NCBI GenBank assembly: GCA_020024155.1
Contig: JAHHUE010000002.1
Location: 77 to 64,076 of the forward strand
Source: Oscillospiraceae bacterium
GTDB lineage: Bacteria > Bacillota > Clostridia > Oscillospirales > Ruminococcaceae
Direction: 5' to 3'
DNA length: 64,000 nt
The first letter of the stretch is position 1, and each line of letters begins with the position of its first letter. A program made the translations under genes and the position numbers. This document shows positions 23,282 to 49,895 of the stretch, in pieces. The notes beneath the pieces were generated by a model, which made no database searches, was not told where the DNA came from, and saw only the letters and a program-made list of their open reading frames with translations.

Positions 23282-26200
23282 TTATTTATAACTTTGGATT
23301 GTTATGCCTGTATAGTAGTGTGATAAAATCTGACTGTATGACCAGCCTTCATTTTGAGCATAAAGCTGTGCCCCCCACTGACTCATACCAACACCATGTC
23401 CGTGTCCATAAGTAGTAAATACAAATGTTGAGCCGTCGTAATCTATATCAAAACAATGGGAACGCATAACCATTGCTCCACCTGACTTAAACAAATCTTC
23501 TCTTAAATTTCTGCCTGTTATAGGCATAGTTCTATTTTGATTTTTACTGAAATATGTTGTTTGTCCACAAATAGACATATCGCCGACATAATTACCACTT
23601 GTTCTATTTAAGATTTGGAACCATGTTTCAGGCTCCCCCGTAGGTTCAATACCAACTTCTCTCAATATGTTTTCCATATCTTCTCTTGAATATCTAACAG
23701 TACCTTGATAGCCACTTGCTTGATAATCGTATTTACTTTCAACGGATACTAAATGTCCATAATGCCCACCCCATACTTCTGCTGATGAGTTTGTTCTGCC
23801 TGATGAAGATGCAAAATATGGAGCATAAACTGGTCTTCCACCAATTACCATAATTAAGTCTTTAACTTCATTAACAGCATTTACAACTGAAGTATATGGC
23901 GTTGTTCGGCCTGCAACAGACGGAGCATAATCCCCAATTGACTGCTGATACCTTATGAATGTATGTGTTGCTATTGCTTGAGCTTTCAATGCCTCTGGAT
24001 TCCAACCTGCTGTCATTTCTTTTGAAACAACTTGAGCAAGTATTTTTTCAACAGAATCAGTAACAACTTGTCCATTCATTGTTACAGTAAGTGTATCAAC
24101 TGGGTCTGGTTTTACTTCTGGCTTAGGTTTTTCGTCCGGTTTAGGTTTTTCGTCCGGTTTAGGCTTTTCATCCGGTTTAGGATTTTTATCCGGTTTAGGA
24201 TTTTTATCCGGTTTTGGTTTTTCATTTGGTTTAGTTTCTTCTGTATTAGGTTTTATATAGTCTTCATCATCTTCAAGTGAAGGTCTTTTATTCGAGCTAT
24301 TAGATGAACTACTATCTTTGTCCTTTGATGAACTGTCACCTTTTGATGAGCTGTCTTTTTCGTCTGAAAAACTTGTATCTGAGTCACTGTCATCTTCTTT
24401 TGATGAGCTTTCGCTAGCTTCACTGTCTTGTTCAGAACTGATGTTAGATACATTAGGTTTTGCTATATTTTCTGAATTACCATCGACTTTTTTTGCAAAA
24501 CACATACTTACCATACCTTCATCTGTTACATCTTTAAACACCATAAGGTCATCAAAACCGGTAACATCCTGCACTTCAAAATCTATTTTAGACTCTGCCA
24601 GCACTTCATCAACTACATCTTGGCTATCCTCCATTTTCATAAGTCCATCATACTGTTGCTGTGTATAATCAACTATTGAAAAAATAGAGTATTTATTATA
24701 ATCACCTTTATCTTCAAAAACTAAAACTTCTTTATCATTTTGCCAGTTTTTTATATCTTCAAAACCAGTATATGTTTTTATACCGGCAATTGAAGTATCC
24801 TCATATACAACACTGCCTTTTTCTTTTTCAAACATTTTATATGAGCCTATTGCATATTCGGTAGGAATATTTTTTACTGTTATCCAGCCCTTTAATTTAA
24901 GGTTTTGAGCCCAAGAGCCGGATATTAAATCTACTGTATCCTGCTCAAAACCCTCTGAAAAAAAATTGTTGCTATGCCTCTGACTTATAATACTAGATAC
25001 TGTATCTTTTGAAAATATATTTGAAAAAAAAGAAAAATCACCTAAATTTCCATCTTTTGTTACAAATAAATATCCAAAAGCAATAATTACAGCAAGCAAT
25101 ATAACTGATAAACCAATTATAAGATAATCAATTATCTTTTTGTTTTTTGATTTTGATTTTTTTGGAGCAATTTCCAATACATCGTCAATTGGAAGATTAA
25201 ATATTACTCTACGCAATAAATCAAGTGCATATTGTGTTGCAAGGTTTGTTATTGTTTCTCTATTGCCTGCAAAATGATGTTTTACAACATAAGTTTTTTC
25301 TTTTGTTGAAACAGCAATATATACAAGACCAACATCATCTCCGGTTGGACCTGCATATCCAGTTGTTGCAACACCATATGTGCTTTCTGCTTTTTTACGA
25401 ATATTATTAGCCATCTGAGCTGCAACTTCACTGCTTACTGCTGTATATGTTTCTATTGCATCTTGCTCTACATCAAGTATTTCAACTTTTTGTTTATCAG
25501 AATATGCACATACACCAAGTTCAAATACCATTGATGAACCTGATATACTTGTTAATCTTGATGAAATTCTGCCACCGGTACAACTTTCTGCTGTTGCAAC
25601 AGTCTGCATAGTTTTAGAAAGTGTATTAACTAACACACTTTCAACATTATCAACATCAACACCATAAATATGCTCGCTTATCTTTCTGCTAATCTGTGCA
25701 TATTGTTTATCAAGAAGTTCGTCTGCTTCTTTGTCGCTTTGTGCTTTTGCTGTAATGCGTATTGTAACTTCGCCATCACCTTTTGCGTAAAGAGCCGCTG
25801 TTGGATTTTCACAATCCAAGACCTCTTTCACTTTTGTTTCAAGCATACTTTCCCCTATGCCAATTGTTTTTACATAACGGGATTTGATAACACCTCTAAC
25901 CAATTTTTTCAAAATTGGCATAACTTGTTTATCCATCATAGGTTTAAGTTCTTTTGGAGGACCAGGCAATAAAACTGCCATTTTTTCACCATCTATAAAA
26001 ACTATACCTGGTGCTGTACCATTTTCGTTATTTAAGAACTTGCCTTTTTTAGGAACAAACGCTTGTTGTTTATTGTTATCTGTCATAACACGATTCATTT
26101 TCTCAAAGTGAAGTTTTATTCTATCTTCAACTTCTTGACTATAAACAAGAGTATCATTGTATACTTGTGCAACCGTTTGTTTTGTAAGGTCGTCATCTGT

Positions 26201-26413
26201 TGGCCCAAGTCCACCAGAAAAAATAACAATATCGCTTCTTTCCTTTGCTGTCTGCACAGCTTGTGTAAGTCGTTCTTTGTTATCACCAACAACTTGCTGA
26301 TTGTATACAGATATACCAATTTCAGACAATGCTTGTGCAAGATATTGTGCATTGGTATTTACTATATCGCCAAGCAATAACTCTGTGCCAACACAAATAA
26401 TTTCTGCGCGCAA
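23282..26413 (-). CDS. Fusion protein: full-length CinA (MoCF-binding + PncC-like NMN deamidase), TM helix, unassigned domain, acidic/KP-repeat linker, SpoIID-type domain
   Basis: N-terminal AEIICVGTELLLGDIVNTNAQYL and ATAESCTGG match CinA. The TM helix is IIGLSVILLAVIIAFGYLFV. C-terminal EALKAQAIATHTF...HGHGVGMSQWGA matches SpoIID. TTG start. Confidence 0.85.
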   Translation of the reverse strand: MRAEIICVGTELLLGDIVNTNAQYLAQALSEIGISVYNQQVVGDNKERLTQAVQTAKERSDIVIFSGGLGPTDDDLTKQTVAQVYNDTLVYSQEVEDRIKLHFEKMNRVMTDNNKQQAFVPKKGKFLNNENGTAPGIVFIDGEKMAVLLPGPPKELKPMMDKQVMPILKKLVRGVIKSRYVKTIGIGESMLETKVKEVLDCENPTAALYAKGDGEVTIRITAKAQSDKEADELLDKQYAQISRKISEHIYGVDVDNVESVLVNTLSKTMQTVATAESCTGGRISSRLTSISGSSMVFELGVCAYSDKQKVEILDVEQDAIETYTAVSSEVAAQMANNIRKKAESTYGVATTGYAGPTGDDVGLVYIAVSTKEKTYVVKHHFAGNRETITNLATQYALDLLRRVIFNLPIDDVLEIAPKKSKSKNKKIIDYLIIGLSVILLAVIIAFGYLFVTKDGNLGDFSFFSNIFSKDTVSSIISQRHSNNFFSEGFEQDTVDLISGSWAQNLKLKGWITVKNIPTEYAIGSYKMFEKEKGSVVYEDTSIAGIKTYTGFEDIKNWQNDKEVLVFEDKGDYNKYSIFSIVDYTQQQYDGLMKMEDSQDVVDEVLAESKIDFEVQDVTGFDDLMVFKDVTDEGMVSMCFAKKVDGNSENIAKPNVSNISSEQDSEASESSSKEDDSDSDTSFSDEKDSSSKGDSSSKDKDSSSSNSSNKRPSLEDDEDYIKPNTEETKPNEKPKPDKNPKPDKNPKPDEKPKPDEKPKPDEKPKPEVKPDPVDTLTVTMNGQVVTDSVEKILAQVVSKEMTAGWNPEALKAQAIATHTFIRYQQSIGDYAPSVAGRTTPYTSVVNAVNEVKDLIMVIGGRPVYAPYFASSSGRTNSSAEVWGGHYGHLVSVESKYDYQASGYQGTVRYSREDMENILREVGIEPTGEPETWFQILNRTSGNYVGDMSICGQTTYFSKNQNRTMPITGRNLREDLFKSGGAMVMRSHCFDIDYDGSTFVFTTYGHGHGVGMSQWGAQLYAQNEGWSYSQILSHYYTGITIQSYK
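24120..24245 (-). repeat. About seven tandem 18-bp coding repeats (KPKPDE/N units) inside the CinA-SpoIID ORF
   Basis: Plus-strand units GGTTTAGGTTTTTCGTCC and close variants in direct succession, translating to NEKPKPDKNPKPDKNPKPDEKPKPDEKPKPDEKPKPE. Confidence 0.9.
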
Positions 26414-43977: not shown

Positions 43978-45216
43978 TTAATTATCAAAAACTTTAATAT
44001 CTTCATCAAGATTTATAACTGCGCCAAAGTAGCCTTGTTGTTGTAATTTGTCAAGAAGTTTACCAAGTTTTTTTGGTCTTTCAAACAAACCAACATCATA
44101 TTCTTTTCTGTATTCCTTAGCTTTTAAAGCACATTTTTCAAAGTTGTTTTCTTCAAAAATTACAGCAAGTTTTTTCTTTGCATTTTCCGGTTTAAATTTT
44201 TGTTCTGAAAGAATTGCAAAAATTCTTTCAAATCCAATTGAAAATCCTACTGCTGGTATATCTTCTCCAAGGAACTTACCAATAAGGTTGTCATATCTGC
44301 CACCACCGGCAATTGCACCTTTAAAATCATTACTTACAACTTCAAAAACTGTACCTGTATAATATCCTTGACCTCTTACGAGAGAAAGGTCAAACACAAG
44401 GTCATATTTATTTTCAGATACAGCAGATGCTATATTGATTATTTTTTCAACATCTCTAACAGCTTCGCTTTCTGGCATAAGTTCTTTAACATATTCCAGT
44501 GAGAAGTTACCCGCATTTAAGAAATTAACAAATTTTTCAACTGCTTGTGTATCAAAATTCTTTTCTTTAAGTTCTTTTTCAACACCTTCTGCACCAATTT
44601 TATCCATTTTATCAAATGTGATACAAACACTTGCCAAATTTTCTTTATCAAAGCCCATACTTTCAAGCAATCCGTTAAGAATTTGACGGTTATTTACTCT
44701 TACTGTAAAGTTTTTAAGGCTAATCGCAAGCAAAGCCTCTGTAACAGTATTTATAAGTTCAATTTCACTGTAAATACTATCTGAGCCAATAATATCAACA
44801 TCACATTGTGTAAATTCTCTCAAACGGCCTTTTTGTGGGCGTTCAGCACGATACACACGGTCCATTTGAATTGCTTTCAATGGGAATGGTAATTTAGAGC
44901 GATTATTAGCAAAATATCTTGTAAGCGGCAAGGTTAAATCATAACGCAAGCCCATATCTGCAAGGTTATTTTCTGTGAGTTCGCCTTCAAAAGCTTTTTG
45001 AAGTTTGTCCCCTCTTTTAAGTATTTTAAATATAAGGTTAAGATTTTCTCCACCATCGCTTTTATCAAGATTTTCAATATCTTCTATTATAGGTGTATTT
45101 ACACGAATAAATCCGTTTGAAGCATAAACTTTCAATATTTCACTTTGGAGATAATCTCTCAAAGCAGTTTCTTCTGGCAAGTAATCAACTGTACCTTTTA
45201 CATTACTTATTTTCAT
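43978..45216 (-). CDS. hisS: Histidine--tRNA ligase
   Basis: VKGTVDYLPEE, YRAERPQKGRLREFTQCDVDIIG (motif 2), GGGRYDNL (motif 3) and a C-terminal anticodon-binding domain. Confidence 0.88.
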   Translation of the reverse strand: MKISNVKGTVDYLPEETALRDYLQSEILKVYASNGFIRVNTPIIEDIENLDKSDGGENLNLIFKILKRGDKLQKAFEGELTENNLADMGLRYDLTLPLTRYFANNRSKLPFPLKAIQMDRVYRAERPQKGRLREFTQCDVDIIGSDSIYSEIELINTVTEALLAISLKNFTVRVNNRQILNGLLESMGFDKENLASVCITFDKMDKIGAEGVEKELKEKNFDTQAVEKFVNFLNAGNFSLEYVKELMPESEAVRDVEKIINIASAVSENKYDLVFDLSLVRGQGYYTGTVFEVVSNDFKGAIAGGGRYDNLIGKFLGEDIPAVGFSIGFERIFAILSEQKFKPENAKKKLAVIFEENNFEKCALKAKEYRKEYDVGLFERPKKLGKLLDKLQQQGYFGAVINLDEDIKVFDN

Positions 45217-45242: not shown

Positions 45243-45746
45243 TTATTTCATATTACTTATAAATTTTTCATATATGATTTTTATAAAAATAATCTCTACC
45301 GGAATCATAATTATATTTTTTATTGCCCTTTTAAAAAAAATTACCCAATATGGCTGAGCTCTGACTATGCTTGTCCACAATGTATTAAGTCCTAAGCGCA
45401 AAACAATATTGACAATAACAACTGCTGTAATTATTTTTAAAAAGCTTTTTGCCCCCTTTTTTTGAAGAAAAAATCCATATACCAAACCGGACAAAGCTGC
45501 CGTTAAAGTGTATCCTGGAAAATATGGACCTACTGGAAATAAAGTTGCGCCTATAAAATCTGCAATACCTGCTGCAATGGCAGTGTAAAATGGACCATAA
45601 AGCATACCTATAATGGATAATGGGATAAATGCAAAGCCAATTTTAGCAATAGGTGTTGGTATTGATAAAAACCTTGATAATACAATTTCTAATGCAATCA
45701 ATAAGGCTATCCTTGCTATTTGCACGGTTTTACTGTTTCTATCCAT
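45243..45746 (-). CDS. folT: ECF-transporter S component, folate family (FolT-like)
   Basis: 167-aa membrane protein with VQIARIALLIALEIVLSRF...IPL...GPF, typical of FolT. Start set at the ATG at 45746 after GGAAGGGG. Confidence 0.7.
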   Translation of the reverse strand: MDRNSKTVQIARIALLIALEIVLSRFLSIPTPIAKIGFAFIPLSIIGMLYGPFYTAIAAGIADFIGATLFPVGPYFPGYTLTAALSGLVYGFFLQKKGAKSFLKIITAVVIVNIVLRLGLNTLWTSIVRAQPYWVIFFKRAIKNIIMIPVEIIFIKIIYEKFISNMK

Positions 45747-45936
45747 AGTTTTATCCCCTTCCAAAATAATAATAGTATTTATTATATATATCTTTTACAT
45801 TTTACTATCTATCCGTATTTTTTGCAATATTTTTATATAAATCGTTATTATTTGTAACCACAGTTTTGATATTTGCAATATGTTATTTCATATAGTAAAA
45901 TTATTATATTAAATAAAAAACGAATTGGGTTGAATA

Positions 45937-48492
45937 ATGAAAAATATTGTTATTGGTGTACTTGCTCATGTTGATAGTGGAAAAACCACTTTGTCAGAAA
46001 GTATGTTATATAAATGTAAGAGCATAAGAAAGCTGGGGCGTGTTGATAATGGTGACACTGCTCTTGATACAAATGAAATAGAAAAAAGCCGTGGTATAAC
46101 TGTGTTTTCAAAACAAGCAAAGCTAGTATATAAAAACACAAATATATACCTTTTGGACACACCGGGTCATATTGATTTTTCTGCTGAAATGGAGAGAACT
46201 CTGTCTGTTTTAGATTATGCCATTCTTGTTATAAGTGGTATTGATGGCATACAACATCATACAGAAACTTTATGGAATTTATTGCAAACATATAAAATTC
46301 CTACTATTATTTTTGTAAATAAAATGGATGCTAATATTGCAGATAAAAATAAACTTATTAACGAGTTAAAAAGTAATTTCAGTACATCTTGCATCGATTT
46401 TACAACACTTAATTTCTCAGTTATGGAAGAAATATCAATAACTGATGAAAGTGTTATGGAAAGCTTTTTGGAAACTGAAACTATATCTGATAGCAATATT
46501 GCTCACTTAATAAATCAACGAAAAGTTTTCCCTTGTATTTTTGGTTCTGCCCTAAAAGAACAAGGTGTTGAAGAGTTATTATCAATTCTTGACAGTTACA
46601 CTATTCAACCTGAATACCCTCAACAATTTGGTGCAAAAGTATATAAAATCGGTCACGACGAACAAGGTGGACGCATTACATATCTAAAAATTACTGGTGG
46701 TAATTTAAAACCAAAAGACAGTGTAACCCTTATTGATAAAAATGGTGAAAAATCAATTGAGAAAATAAATCAAATCAGATTGTATACCGGAGAAAAATTT
46801 TCTTCTGAACAATGTGCCGAAAGTGGAACAATTTGTGCTGTAACCGGACTTACAAAAACTTATTCTGGACAAGGTATCGGCATAGAGCATAATCTTGAAC
46901 AAAAACTGTCACAGCCAATATTTACTTATAAAGTTTTAATACTTGATAAAACTGACGCCTTTACAACTTTATCTAAATTCCGTATTCTTGAACAAGAGGA
47001 CCCTCAACTTAATGTTATATGGAATGAACAACTTTCCGAAATTCATGTAAGTCTTATGGGCGAAATTCAACTTGAAGTATTAAAACACATTTTTGCCCAA
47101 AGATTTAGTATTGAAATTGATTTTGACCAAGGTAGTGTTGTCTACAAAGAAACTATACGAAACACTGTTGAAGGTGTTGGTCACTTTGAACCTTTAAGGC
47201 ACTATGCAGAAGTTCATCTTTTACTTGAAAAAATCAAACAAGGCAGTGGCCTTATTTTTGATACTATTTGCAGTGAAGACAGACTGGATAAAAACTGGCA
47301 AAGGCTTATTCTTACTCATCTTACAGAAAAAACTCATTTAGGTGTATTAACCGGCAGCCCTATAACTGATATTAAAATCACATTGGTAAGTGGTAAATCA
47401 CACATAAAGCACACTGACGGCGGAGATTTTCGTCAGGCAACATATCGTGCTGTTCGTCAAGGTCTTATGCAGGCAGAAAGCGTTTTGCTTGAACCGTGGT
47501 ATGACTTTACAATAACTGTATCAAGCGAAAATATTGGTCGTGTTATGACAGATATACAAAAAATGAGTGGTAATTTTGATGCACCTGTTGTAAACGGAGA
47601 TATATCAGTTCTTAAAGGCTCTGTTCCTGTTATAGAGATAAATAATTACAGACAAGATTTTATAAACTTTACTCGTGGAAAAGGCAGAATGACTTGTGTT
47701 TTCAAAGGTTATTTTGAATGTCATAACACTGCACAAGTTATTAGAGAAATAGGATATAACCCAGAAAACGATATTGAAAATTCTGCTGACAGTGTATTTT
47801 GCTCTCATGGTTCTGCAACTGTTGTTAAATGGTATGATGTAAAAGACAATATGCACTTGGAAAGTTTTTTAAAAGAAAAAACAGAGGATTTAACACCGCT
47901 TATAACTCAAAATCAAGTAAGAGAGTATCGTTCTTTTCTTGAACAAGATAAAGAGCTTTTGAAAATTTTTGAAAACACTTATGGAAAAATTAAAACTGAT
48001 AGATATACTGTTTTTAATACTCCAAGTAAGACAGAAACAAAAACCACAACAAATTATAAAACTTATGAACAAGATTACCTTCTTGTTGATGGATATAATA
48101 TAATTTTTGCGTGGGACGATTTAAAAAATCTTGCTCAAAAAAATCTTGATGCTGCCCGTCATAATCTCATAAATACACTTTGTAATTATCAAGGTTTCAA
48201 AAAATGTGAAGTTATTTTAGTTTTTGATGCATACAAAGTAAAAGGCAATACTGGAAGTATTGAAAAATATCACAATATAACTATCGTTTATACAAAAGAG
48301 GCAGAAACTGCTGATATGTATATTGAAAAAACTACTAAAAACTTGGCAAAAAATTATCGTGTGAGAGTTGCAACAAGTGATAATCTTGAGCAAATTATTA
48401 TTCTTGGACATGGTGCAATGCGTTTATCTGCACGCAATTTCAAACAAGAAGTTGATGAAATAGAAAAAGCTATACGAGAAATAATAGAATAA
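45937..48492 (+). CDS. TetM/EF-G-like translational GTPase fused to a C-terminal Rae1/YacP-type NYN ribonuclease domain
   Basis: G1 AHVDSGKT, G3 DTPGH, G4 NKMD and EF-G-like domains II-V. The C-terminal 150 aa (LLVDGYNIIFAW...VFDAYKV...ETADMYIE...VATSDNLEQ...GAMRLSARNF) are collinear with B. subtilis YacP/Rae1. Confidence 0.85.
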   Translation: MKNIVIGVLAHVDSGKTTLSESMLYKCKSIRKLGRVDNGDTALDTNEIEKSRGITVFSKQAKLVYKNTNIYLLDTPGHIDFSAEMERTLSVLDYAILVISGIDGIQHHTETLWNLLQTYKIPTIIFVNKMDANIADKNKLINELKSNFSTSCIDFTTLNFSVMEEISITDESVMESFLETETISDSNIAHLINQRKVFPCIFGSALKEQGVEELLSILDSYTIQPEYPQQFGAKVYKIGHDEQGGRITYLKITGGNLKPKDSVTLIDKNGEKSIEKINQIRLYTGEKFSSEQCAESGTICAVTGLTKTYSGQGIGIEHNLEQKLSQPIFTYKVLILDKTDAFTTLSKFRILEQEDPQLNVIWNEQLSEIHVSLMGEIQLEVLKHIFAQRFSIEIDFDQGSVVYKETIRNTVEGVGHFEPLRHYAEVHLLLEKIKQGSGLIFDTICSEDRLDKNWQRLILTHLTEKTHLGVLTGSPITDIKITLVSGKSHIKHTDGGDFRQATYRAVRQGLMQAESVLLEPWYDFTITVSSENIGRVMTDIQKMSGNFDAPVVNGDISVLKGSVPVIEINNYRQDFINFTRGKGRMTCVFKGYFECHNTAQVIREIGYNPENDIENSADSVFCSHGSATVVKWYDVKDNMHLESFLKEKTEDLTPLITQNQVREYRSFLEQDKELLKIFENTYGKIKTDRYTVFNTPSKTETKTTTNYKTYEQDYLLVDGYNIIFAWDDLKNLAQKNLDAARHNLINTLCNYQGFKKCEVILVFDAYKVKGNTGSIEKYHNITIVYTKEAETADMYIEKTTKNLAKNYRVRVATSDNLEQIIILGHGAMRLSARNFKQEVDEIEKAIREIIE

Positions 48493-48501
48493 AAATAAAA
48501 G

Positions 48502-48536
48502 ACGATATTAGACCCAAAATCTAATATCGTTTTTTC
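48502..48536 (+). terminator. Intrinsic terminator after the GTPase-NYN gene
   Basis: ACGATATTAGA / TCTAATATCGT stem followed by TTTTTTC. Confidence 0.85.
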
Positions 48537-48668: not shown

Positions 48669-49355
48669 TTAAAGATGAGTATTGATAGAGTATATTCCTA
48701 AAAACTCTTCTCCACCCCATCTGCCAACAAGGTCATGTCTACGAATATTTCTAATAAGACTTTTAGAAATATTTTTTAGAACCATATCCCCTGCATCATG
48801 TCCGTATGTATTATTAACTTTGCTAAAATCATCAATATCAGCAAATAATACTGCAAAACTTCTTCCAATTTTTTTATATTCTTCAAATTTATAAGAAATA
48901 AAACTCTCCAAGTAACAACGGTTAGGTAACTCTGTTAAATTATCATGCATAGCAATATTAGATAAATTTTTTATTAAATTATCTTCAAAAACTTTTGGAA
49001 AATCCTTAGTAAATATTTCTACTGCCCCTACAATTTGTTCTTCATTTTTAATAGGAAAAATATTTACTCTAATAGGAATTCTGTATCCGTCACGATGCCT
49101 AACAAGAACCTGGTCTTGTCTTTTTTTTCTGTCTTATATTGTAGCAAATAAAGGACAATCGAGATTGCATATAGCTTTTACTTATTTGTCTATATGATTT
49201 AGCCCGCTGTTTTGACAGCATTTGCCAATTATTTCTTCTGCCTTATATCCTGTAATTTCTTCTGCTACATGATTCTAAAACTTTATCTTCCATTCTTTAT
49301 CCACAAAATAAATATCATCTTGCAACTGTTTTATAATATCTAAATATCTATATTG
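48669..49355 (-). pseudogene. PAS-GGDEF diguanylate cyclase pseudogene
   Basis: A single frame reads ...DDIYFVDKEWKIKF*NHVAEEITGYKAEEIIGKCCQNSGLNHIDK*VKAICNLDCPLFATI*DRKKRQDQVLVRHRDGYRIPIRV...LTELPNR...GRWGGEEFLGI. It has three in-frame stops, no start codon, and the GGDEF domain is truncated shortly after GGEEF. Confidence 0.8.
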
Positions 49356-49579: not shown

Positions 49580-49666
49580 TGGTGCGGATGACAAGACTTG
49601 AACTTGCACGATATTGCTACCACTAGCCCCTCAAGCTAGCGTGTCTGCCGATTCCACCACATCCGC
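49580..49666 (-). tRNA. tRNA-Leu (anticodon GAG), copy 1
   Basis: Reverse complement reads GCGGATGTGGTGGAATCGGCAGACACGCTAGCTTGAGGGGCTAGTGGTAGCAATATCGTGCAAGTTCAAGTCTTGTCATCCGCACCA. 87 nt with a long variable arm. Confidence 0.93.
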
Positions 49667-49808: not shown

Positions 49809-49895
49809 TGGTGCGGATGACAAGACTTGAACTTGCACGATATTGCTACCACTAGCCCCTCAAGCTAGCGTGTCTGCCGATTCCACCACATCCGC
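49809..49895 (-). tRNA. tRNA-Leu (anticodon GAG), copy 2
   Basis: Sequence identical to copy 1 by direct comparison. Confidence 0.93.

Follow-up and report, generated by a model that had tools for sequence, protein, structure and literature searches.

We analysed a 64,000-nucleotide stretch of an Oscillospiraceae genome (contig JAHHUE010000002.1 of assembly GCA_020024155.1; the whole stretch is hereafter the window) that encodes, at positions 45937..48492 of the forward strand, an 851-residue fusion of a translational GTPase with a C-terminal endoribonuclease domain of the Rae1 (YacP) type. The GTPase part is related both to elongation factor G (EF-G) and to the tetracycline ribosomal-protection proteins (Tet), and the gene adds one member to a fusion family that is large, known in the literature and functionally uncharacterised. 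Based on the domain architecture, the conservation of the catalytic residues, the wide vertical distribution of the family and the absence of the Tet signature, we propose, with about even confidence, that the protein is a ribosome-targeted endoribonuclease that cuts mRNA on stalled or collided ribosomes and thereby feeds these into rescue.

An earlier reading of the same DNA, made from the sequence only and referred to here as the sequence-only reading, had described one uninterrupted 851-residue open reading frame (ORF) with translational GTPase motifs, and both points hold: the ORF has no interruption and contains AHVDSGKT (G1, residues 10-17), RGIT (G2, 52-55), DTPGH (G3, 74-78) and NKMD (G4, 128-131), together with a G5 element, GSAL (203-206). 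The profile hidden Markov model (HMM) scan that this reading had suggested recovered GTP_EFTU, EFG_III, EFG_IV, EFG_C and NYN_YacP (Table 1), with EFG_III (residues 325-396, E-value 2.2e-06) at 28.1 bits against a cut-off of 27, and EF-G_D2 (residues 233-308) slightly under the same cut-off at 24.5 bits. The collinearity with TetM noticed at the N-terminus was likewise confirmed and covers all five GTPase domains, with residues 1-593 aligning end to end with TetO 1-611 and with TetM. Conservation was assessed in 67 diverse family members, namely the window protein and 66 representatives that are 39-52% identical to it over their full length, and for some residues in a smaller alignment of 39 diverse sequences, a subset of the family. 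Among the 67 members, motifs G1 to G5 and the catalytic His78 of DTPGH are at least 97% conserved, and we propose from these motifs that the N-terminal ~600 residues form an active five-domain translational GTPase.

The nuclease domain is equally well preserved. Its assignment to Rae1/YacP, including the acidic residues, had been made by eye and is now supported by a Pfam match to NYN_YacP (PF05991) over residues 715-848 (E-value 3.5e-51; 173.9 bits against a gathering cut-off of 24.6; profile positions 1-136 of 166) and by an alignment with residues 2-136 of Bacillus subtilis YacP/Rae1 (PDB 5mq8/5mq9; E-value 3e-27, 45% identity over 135 residues). Rae1 residues D7, D53, D81 and D104 correspond to D718, D764, D793 and D815 of the window protein, where they stand in the motifs D718-G-Y-N721, D764, E-T-A-D793 and S-D815. 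These four aspartates do not vary at all in the 39-sequence alignment and reach at least 97% conservation among the 67 members. The window domain thus shares with Rae1 of B. subtilis the NYN_YacP fold family, the D-G-Y-N motif and the four acidic residues. However, it forms the C-terminus of an 851-residue GTPase, stops ~34 residues short of the Rae1 C-terminus and lies in an unrelated genomic context, whereas the typical Rae1/YacP protein stands alone (~170 residues) in an mrnC-rlmB(yacO)-yacP neighbourhood, none of whose genes is found in the 64-kb window.

The two proteins also differ at their very ends. In the NYN_YacP family the core is followed by two C-terminal helices with conserved basic residues (Matelska 2017, PMC5499597), which are not both present in the window protein: a single helix (residues 832-850) follows the core, and the chain stops at the equivalent of Rae1 residue 136. 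Approximately 60% of the other family members carry a tail of 11-36 residues past the NYN core, and the clade of the window protein carries none. The missing Rae1 tail in this clade is consistent with the GTPase having taken over ribosome recruitment.

Between the last GTPase domain and the nuclease, the sequence-only reading had placed a linker of about 60 residues. The segment between EFG_C and NYN_YacP in fact comprises ~115 residues, of which ~85 (599-683) form a conserved, family-specific extension and only ~30 (684-714) a variable linker. Secondary structure in an AlphaFold2 (AF2) model of the extension consists of a helix, a small beta-hairpin unit and two helices, at a moderate predicted local distance difference test score (pLDDT) of 55-78, and the two final helices end in the motif E-L-x-x-I-F-E-x-T-Y-G. 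Conserved positions in the extension include Y607, D612, S619 (67/67 members), F621 (67/67), C622 (63/67), G625 (67/67), W632 and H640, and C595, at the end of domain V just upstream of the extension, is retained in 60/67. C595, C622 and H640 (nucleotides 47719-47721, 47800-47802 and 47854-47856) are each kept in 60-63 of the 67 members. A zinc site formed by C595, H596, C622 and H624 was considered and found unsupported, with H596 present in only 39/67 and H624 in 52/67 members, and with several published members having Gly, Gln or Asn at position 624. The linker varies from 29 to 89 residues across the family and is basic in composition (15% Lys, 10% Arg, 8% Pro, 8% Ser); in the window protein residues 688-709 are predicted to be disordered (pLDDT below 50).

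A first AF2 model from a shallow alignment had a poor domain IV; the model used was built with a 52-sequence alignment. It reaches an overall pLDDT of 77.1, with good confidence for domains I-V and the NYN domain (~75-90 in domains II and III), and its best Foldseek matches are EF-G structures (E-value ~1e-50; target-length-normalised TM-score 0.47-0.56). Two family signatures mark domain IV. The first, G-H-F/Y-E-P-L-R-H-Y (residues 415-423), contains the sequence EPLRHY at the position of EF-G loop I (QTGGRGQY), which is four residues shorter in the fusion protein. EF-G uses this loop, of the pattern GGRGQ(Y/F)G, and its tip histidine in translocation. The second, G-K/R-A/S-H-x-K-H-T-E/D-G-G-D-F-R (residues 486-499), forms the tip of the domain, and its residues H489, K491 and H492 occur in 58, 62 and 64 of the 67 members, respectively, indicating that the tip is under strong family-specific constraint. 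H489 aligns with the histidine of EF-G GSYHEVDSS, and an EF-G-like tip histidine would fit recognition of a pre-translocation or decoding-centre state.

The fusion is a consistent property of this family. An identical 851-residue protein also occurs on a Logan contig from an independent assembly, and clusters of full-length homologues with the same architecture (845-883 residues, 57-82% identical) number more than 120. When residues 596-851 were searched against 1.84 billion representatives, 503 matches were obtained at an E-value of 1e-30 or lower, and fusions of 830-1156 residues, or fragments of these, make up the majority of the best 150; the best 120 profile matches all carry PF05991. The spread of the architecture, which the sequence-only reading had recommended examining, was assessed by scanning one genome per GTDB species for the two domain-IV signatures H[FY]EPLRHY and KHT[EDV]GGDF. 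This returned at least 600 matching stretches, and all 600 listed are relatives, which places the family in at least 600 species. Among the best 80 loci, a single stop-to-stop ORF spans both the domain-IV signature and the NYN domain in 76, and 72 of these 76 also match a strict G1 pattern; the other four loci are cut by contig ends, so that all 76 informative loci are fused. In the sample examined, fusion to the NYN domain is therefore obligatory for this GTPase subfamily. The gene is chromosomal, single-copy and core-like in hundreds of species, and its distribution over several clostridial orders points to vertical spread.

The sequence-only reading had implied that the fusion was new, which is not the case. 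Atkinson 2015 (BMC Genomics 16:78, Additional file 8; PMC4342817) had described a TetM-like/NYN_YacP fusion, with sequences from Ruminococcus albus 7, Eubacterium rectale, E. eligens, Butyrivibrio proteoclasticus, Clostridium cellulolyticum, C. thermocellum, C. phytofermentans, C. lentocellum and Desulfitobacterium hafniense, and the same fusion was reported by Matelska et al. 2017 (NAR 45:6995; PMC5499597); neither study tested its function. These clostridial proteins have the same domain order, family motifs and fusion position as the window protein. The sequences deposited with the 2015 paper share H(F/Y)EPLRHY, KHT(E/D/Q)GGDFR and SVFC, and only some have IFERTYG. The window protein belongs to a compact, 851-residue Oscillospiraceae-type subclade with a short linker and no tail behind the NYN domain, whereas many published members have 900-1000 residues and a tail of 20-36 residues.

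Rae1, the only characterised NYN_YacP protein, provides the basis for the proposed function. Its cleavage of mRNA is translation-dependent (PMC12407103), and a 2026 preprint describes it as making substrates for transfer-messenger RNA (tmRNA) on collided ribosomes (PMC13622287). The sequence-only reading had relied on cleavage in the ribosomal A site, a position that has been revised by the same laboratory: the cut lies 12 nt upstream of the A-site codon, at the stalled ribosome's tail end, and possibly needs collided ribosomes (PMC12407103). We hypothesise that the fusion protein applies this activity as follows. Its GTPase part would occupy the ribosomal factor-binding site, domain IV pointing toward the decoding centre. 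In EF-G the C-terminal helix lies folded back against domain IV, and residues ~596-605 of the window protein align with this helix, so that the extension, linker and nuclease would leave the factor at the decoding side of the 30S subunit and not at the 50S stalk. The chain would return to the base of domain IV and continue through the extension and a Lys/Arg-rich tether of 30-90 residues to the intact Rae1-type NYN domain. The GTPase would select ribosomes that are unable to proceed, either stalled or trailing in a collision and not translocating, and the tethered nuclease would cleave the message at the bound ribosome's 30S mRNA entrance or close to it. If the trailing ribosome of a collided pair were bound, this cut would fall between the two ribosomes, in the stretch that stand-alone Rae1 also cleaves. 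Truncation of the mRNA would turn the ribosomes into substrates of tmRNA and ribosome quality control. Ribosome binding, the mRNA substrate, the ribosome state recognised and the position of the cut are inferred, and GTP-gated delivery of the nuclease to stalled ribosomes is plausible. SmrB of Escherichia coli and MutS2 of B. subtilis follow a logic that the fusion would share by analogy only, in which a separate recognition module brings a nuclease or splitting factor to stalled or collided ribosomes and yields substrates for tmRNA or quality control. However, their nuclease fold is SMR and not NYN, their recognition module is unrelated, and no GTPase takes part in those systems.

Genomic context lends this proposal some support in one subclade. 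In seven of 82 loci (L018, L031, L042, L047, L050, L074 and L080; for example L031:5467-6222) a YlmH-like gene of ~250 codons (Pfam YlmH_RBD, 34.9 bits) lies directly 3' of the fusion gene on the same strand, at a spacing of -16 to +120 nt and with an overlap of 10-16 nt in four of the seven. The encoded proteins are only 46-77% identical to the query YlmH-like protein, which indicates that the subclade has diverged. In B. subtilis, YlmH acts in ribosome quality control (PMC11317155), and its pairing with the fusion gene therefore favours a rescue role. The YlmH-like gene is absent from the window.

Several points weigh against a role in the rescue of stalled ribosomes. The docking geometry is argued from the structure of EF-G, and stand-alone Rae1 apparently acts with no need of a GTPase. 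No neighbour is universally conserved, the largest neighbour cluster covering seven of the 82 loci, and a full-text literature search of a limited collection found no experimental study of the fusion. The sequence data may also be compatible with rRNA as the substrate. Finally, the fusion may be either a replacement of Rae1 or a specialised paralogue. The presence or absence of a stand-alone rae1 decides between these two; none was found in the 64-kb window or within ~4 kb of 80 homologous loci, a result with little bearing on whole genomes.

The strongest alternative holds that the GTPase binds immature, damaged or idle ribosomes and that the NYN domain cuts rRNA (possible sites being the decoding region and the vicinity of the 16S 3' end) or tRNA, for maturation or turnover. 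Processing of rRNA or tRNA was the original prediction for NYN_YacP proteins (PMC4342817, PMC5499597), a factor at the GTPase centre is surrounded by rRNA, and the gene is housekeeping-like and probably monocistronic. However, the sole characterised member of the nuclease family makes translation-dependent cuts in mRNA, no linkage to rRNA-processing genes was seen in the 82 loci, and the one recurrent operon partner, YlmH, indicates rescue of stalled ribosomes. We therefore regard an rRNA or tRNA substrate as unlikely, if still worth considering.

A role in tetracycline resistance, with the nuclease adding to or modifying ribosomal protection, is suggested by the similarity searches at first sight. 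The best NCBIfam model is tet_protect (420.9 bits), TetO is the best PDB sequence match across the whole GTPase part (249.7 bits), and the G' insert has the short length typical of Tet proteins: the Tet alignment is collinear, whereas the EF-G alignment breaks with ~50 residues missing. Moreover, the HMMs of Atkinson 2015 placed the fusion group under Tet (PMC4342817), and RefSeq names one homologue (P0453, WP_288937718.1) as a TetM/TetW/TetO/TetS family protein. Nevertheless, every curated Tet cut-off is missed widely: 420.9 bits compare with a cut-off of 775 for tet_protect, 278.1 with 1100 for tet_protect_M_W (TetM/W/O/S), 236.7 with 1420 for Tet(M), 282.5 with 1425 for Tet(Q) and 297.1 with 900 for Otr(A). 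The EF-G models also score below their cut-offs (TIGR00484, 291.7 against 659.4; NF009381, 346.1 against 583), and because both the Tet and the EF-G cut-offs are missed, the GTPase part is by these profile scores a subfamily of its own.

Domain IV also speaks against a Tet protein. In structures of TetM on the ribosome, the Tyr-Ser-Pro motif in loop III of domain IV contacts the tetracycline site. When TetO (GLYYSPVSTPADFR) is aligned to the window protein (GKSHIKHTDGGDFR), this loop-III motif (YYSPVS) is absent and KSHIKH stands in its place, a replacement conserved family-wide. Scored alone, domains IV and V slightly favour EF-G, with 63.7 bits compared with 57.4 for TetO and 52.8 for TetM. 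Compared with EF-G, the window protein has the same fold, keeps the tip histidine and is slightly closer in domains IV-V than to Tet, but its G' insert and loop I are shorter and it carries an additional nuclease domain. Compared with Tet(M) and Tet(O), the part of its chain that follows domain V is unrelated and far longer, and the gene lies off mobile elements. The fusion gene has the GC content of its surroundings and is found among housekeeping genes, those in the window including PolA, ProRS, TsaD, Dus, Tex, AckA, ThiI, FTHFS and RmuC, among others. Its homologues occupy unrelated chromosomal contexts with varied housekeeping neighbours and without mobile elements, and the spread over several clostridial orders is vertical.

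By the tests available the fusion protein is not a tetracycline-resistance protein, in agreement with the sequence-only reading, and we judge it very improbable that resistance is its function. Many homologues (P0011, P0017, P0035, P0056, P0119, P0393 and P0403) are nevertheless named 'TetM/TetW/TetO/TetS family tetracycline resistance ribosomal protection protein' in RefSeq and GenBank, with scores far under the curated Tet cut-offs. Such names likely mean that resistance genes are over-annotated systematically in gut Clostridia, and a fusion family that is core in hundreds of gut and rumen Clostridia can inflate the resistance-gene counts of microbiome surveys.

About as improbable is a toxin that shuts off translation under stress, or an abortive-infection defence, that would cut mRNA on all ribosomes once activated. 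Ribosome-dependent mRNA nucleases such as RelE act in this way, and joining a nuclease to a module that binds ribosomes could in principle create a toxin. However, PADLOC gave no match, neither the window nor the 82 loci have an adjoining antitoxin or immunity gene or a defence-island context, and a single-copy, core-like gene in hundreds of species does not resemble such a system. The only match among IMG/VR viral contigs (L010:5-661) is a C-terminal fragment of a fusion gene, located at the extreme end of a contig of 4 kb, which is probably host DNA flanking a prophage and not a phage-encoded nuclease.

An error of sequencing or assembly that merged two neighbouring genes, a concern raised with the sequence-only reading, is excluded as the origin of the fusion, although some database entries do show a GTPase ORF of ~700 residues followed by a separate NYN ORF of 170-180 residues: the window ORF is intact, recurs identically in an independent assembly and has a single-ORF counterpart at all 76 informative loci. 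Two of the three split entries (four loci), read at the junction, show a frame change beside A-runs or undetermined bases, and one of them has the conserved IFE.TYG helix out of frame. In the assembly behind the third, the fusion gene and neighbouring genes are broken into several pieces. Among the split assemblies (L005-L009; for example the junction at L006:5968-6001), the frame change is seen in L006-L009, and L005 is the assembly with many fragmented genes. Since the frame changes fall in the Lys-rich linker and one assembly is fragmented, it is the splits, not the fusion, that are likely errors. They likely represent sequencing errors or pseudogenes, with programmed frameshifting among the alternatives. 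A genuine operon of a split GTPase and a stand-alone fusion-type NYN was also considered and rejected, as the three long-contig clusters concerned all lie directly behind a GTPase ORF and two of the junctions have frame breaks.

The surroundings of the fusion gene in the window are summarised in Table 1. Upstream of the gene, within a 172-nt divergent intergenic region, a promoter-like sequence was picked up by a consensus scan, which did not find such sites to be more numerous than in shuffled sequence. An Rfam search identified no leader, riboswitch or other regulatory RNA near the fusion gene. The hairpin directly after its stop codon is likely a terminator, which would make the gene monocistronic. 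The two divergent genes upstream encode the S component of an energy-coupling factor (ECF) transporter and a 412-residue HisRS-like protein in which no anticodon-binding domain was detected and which is possibly a HisZ-type paralogue. A gene for an ATP-binding cassette (ABC)/ECF fusion protein neighbours the fusion gene in seven of the 82 homologous loci. Just downstream of the terminator, a 93-residue ORF covers no more than the first half of the profile for a GGDEF diguanylate-cyclase domain (positions 2-87 of 161) and resembles a truncated remnant or a gene broken by a frameshift. Two tandem tRNA-Leu(GAG) genes of 87 nt each lie ~140 nt apart between this remnant and rmuC. Elsewhere in the window, a 1043-residue ORF comprises a complete CinA (MoCF_biosynth, CinA_KH and CinA; residues 1-403) and ~640 further residues, whose sole match is a weak partial one to SpoIID (787-824), making it an unusually long CinA fusion.

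Table 1 Features of the fusion gene and its surroundings, in window coordinates.
Feature	Position	Strand	Evidence
Whole gene: EF-G/Tet-like translational GTPase with Rae1-type NYN nuclease, 851 aa	45937..48492	+	ORF, Pfam, homologues
Promoter-like TTGCAA, 17 nt, TAAAAT, ~35 nt 5' of ATG	45872..45901	+	consensus scan only, weak
G domain, aa 4-222	45946..46602	+	Pfam GTP_EFTU 2e-51
Domains II and III, aa 233-396	46633..47124	+	Pfam EF-G_D2, EFG_III
Domain IV, aa 399-513	47131..47475	+	Pfam EFG_IV 1.2e-17
Domain V, aa 516-598	47482..47730	+	Pfam EFG_C 5.2e-19
Family-specific C-terminal extension, aa 599-683	47731..47985	+	conservation, AF2; no Pfam match
Variable basic linker, predicted disordered, aa 684-714	47986..48078	+	family length and composition, AF2 pLDDT
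NYN_YacP (Rae1-type) endoribonuclease domain, aa 715-851	48079..48489	+	Pfam 3.5e-51, PDB 5mq8/5mq9
13-bp hairpin flanked by T-runs, directly after stop codon; likely bidirectional terminator	48502..48530	no strand	
Long CinA fusion ORF	23282-26413	-	
HisRS-like gene, divergent	43978-45216	-	
ECF-transporter S component gene, divergent	45243-45764	-	
GGDEF remnant or frameshifted gene (apparent)	48669-48950	-	
tRNA-Leu(GAG)	49580-49666	-	
tRNA-Leu(GAG)	49809-49895	-	

How Rae1 is recruited to stalled or collided ribosomes is a current question, and its fusion to a factor with a known site on the ribosome offers a direct structural and biochemical handle on it. A bolder possibility, which we put forward only tentatively and consider rather doubtful, is that the family acts as a GTP-gated sensor of failed translocation or collision, with GTP hydrolysis as a timer, that places the Rae1 nuclease at the mRNA entrance and constitutes the main or only route from stalled ribosomes to tmRNA and quality control in many gut Clostridia. 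On this bolder view the fusion would be the first known translational GTPase with a nuclease of its own, as well as a natural, covalently trapped model of Rae1-ribosome engagement. If the proposed role were confirmed, a GTPase-coupled nuclease would join the bacterial ribosome-rescue repertoire in dominant gut Firmicutes.

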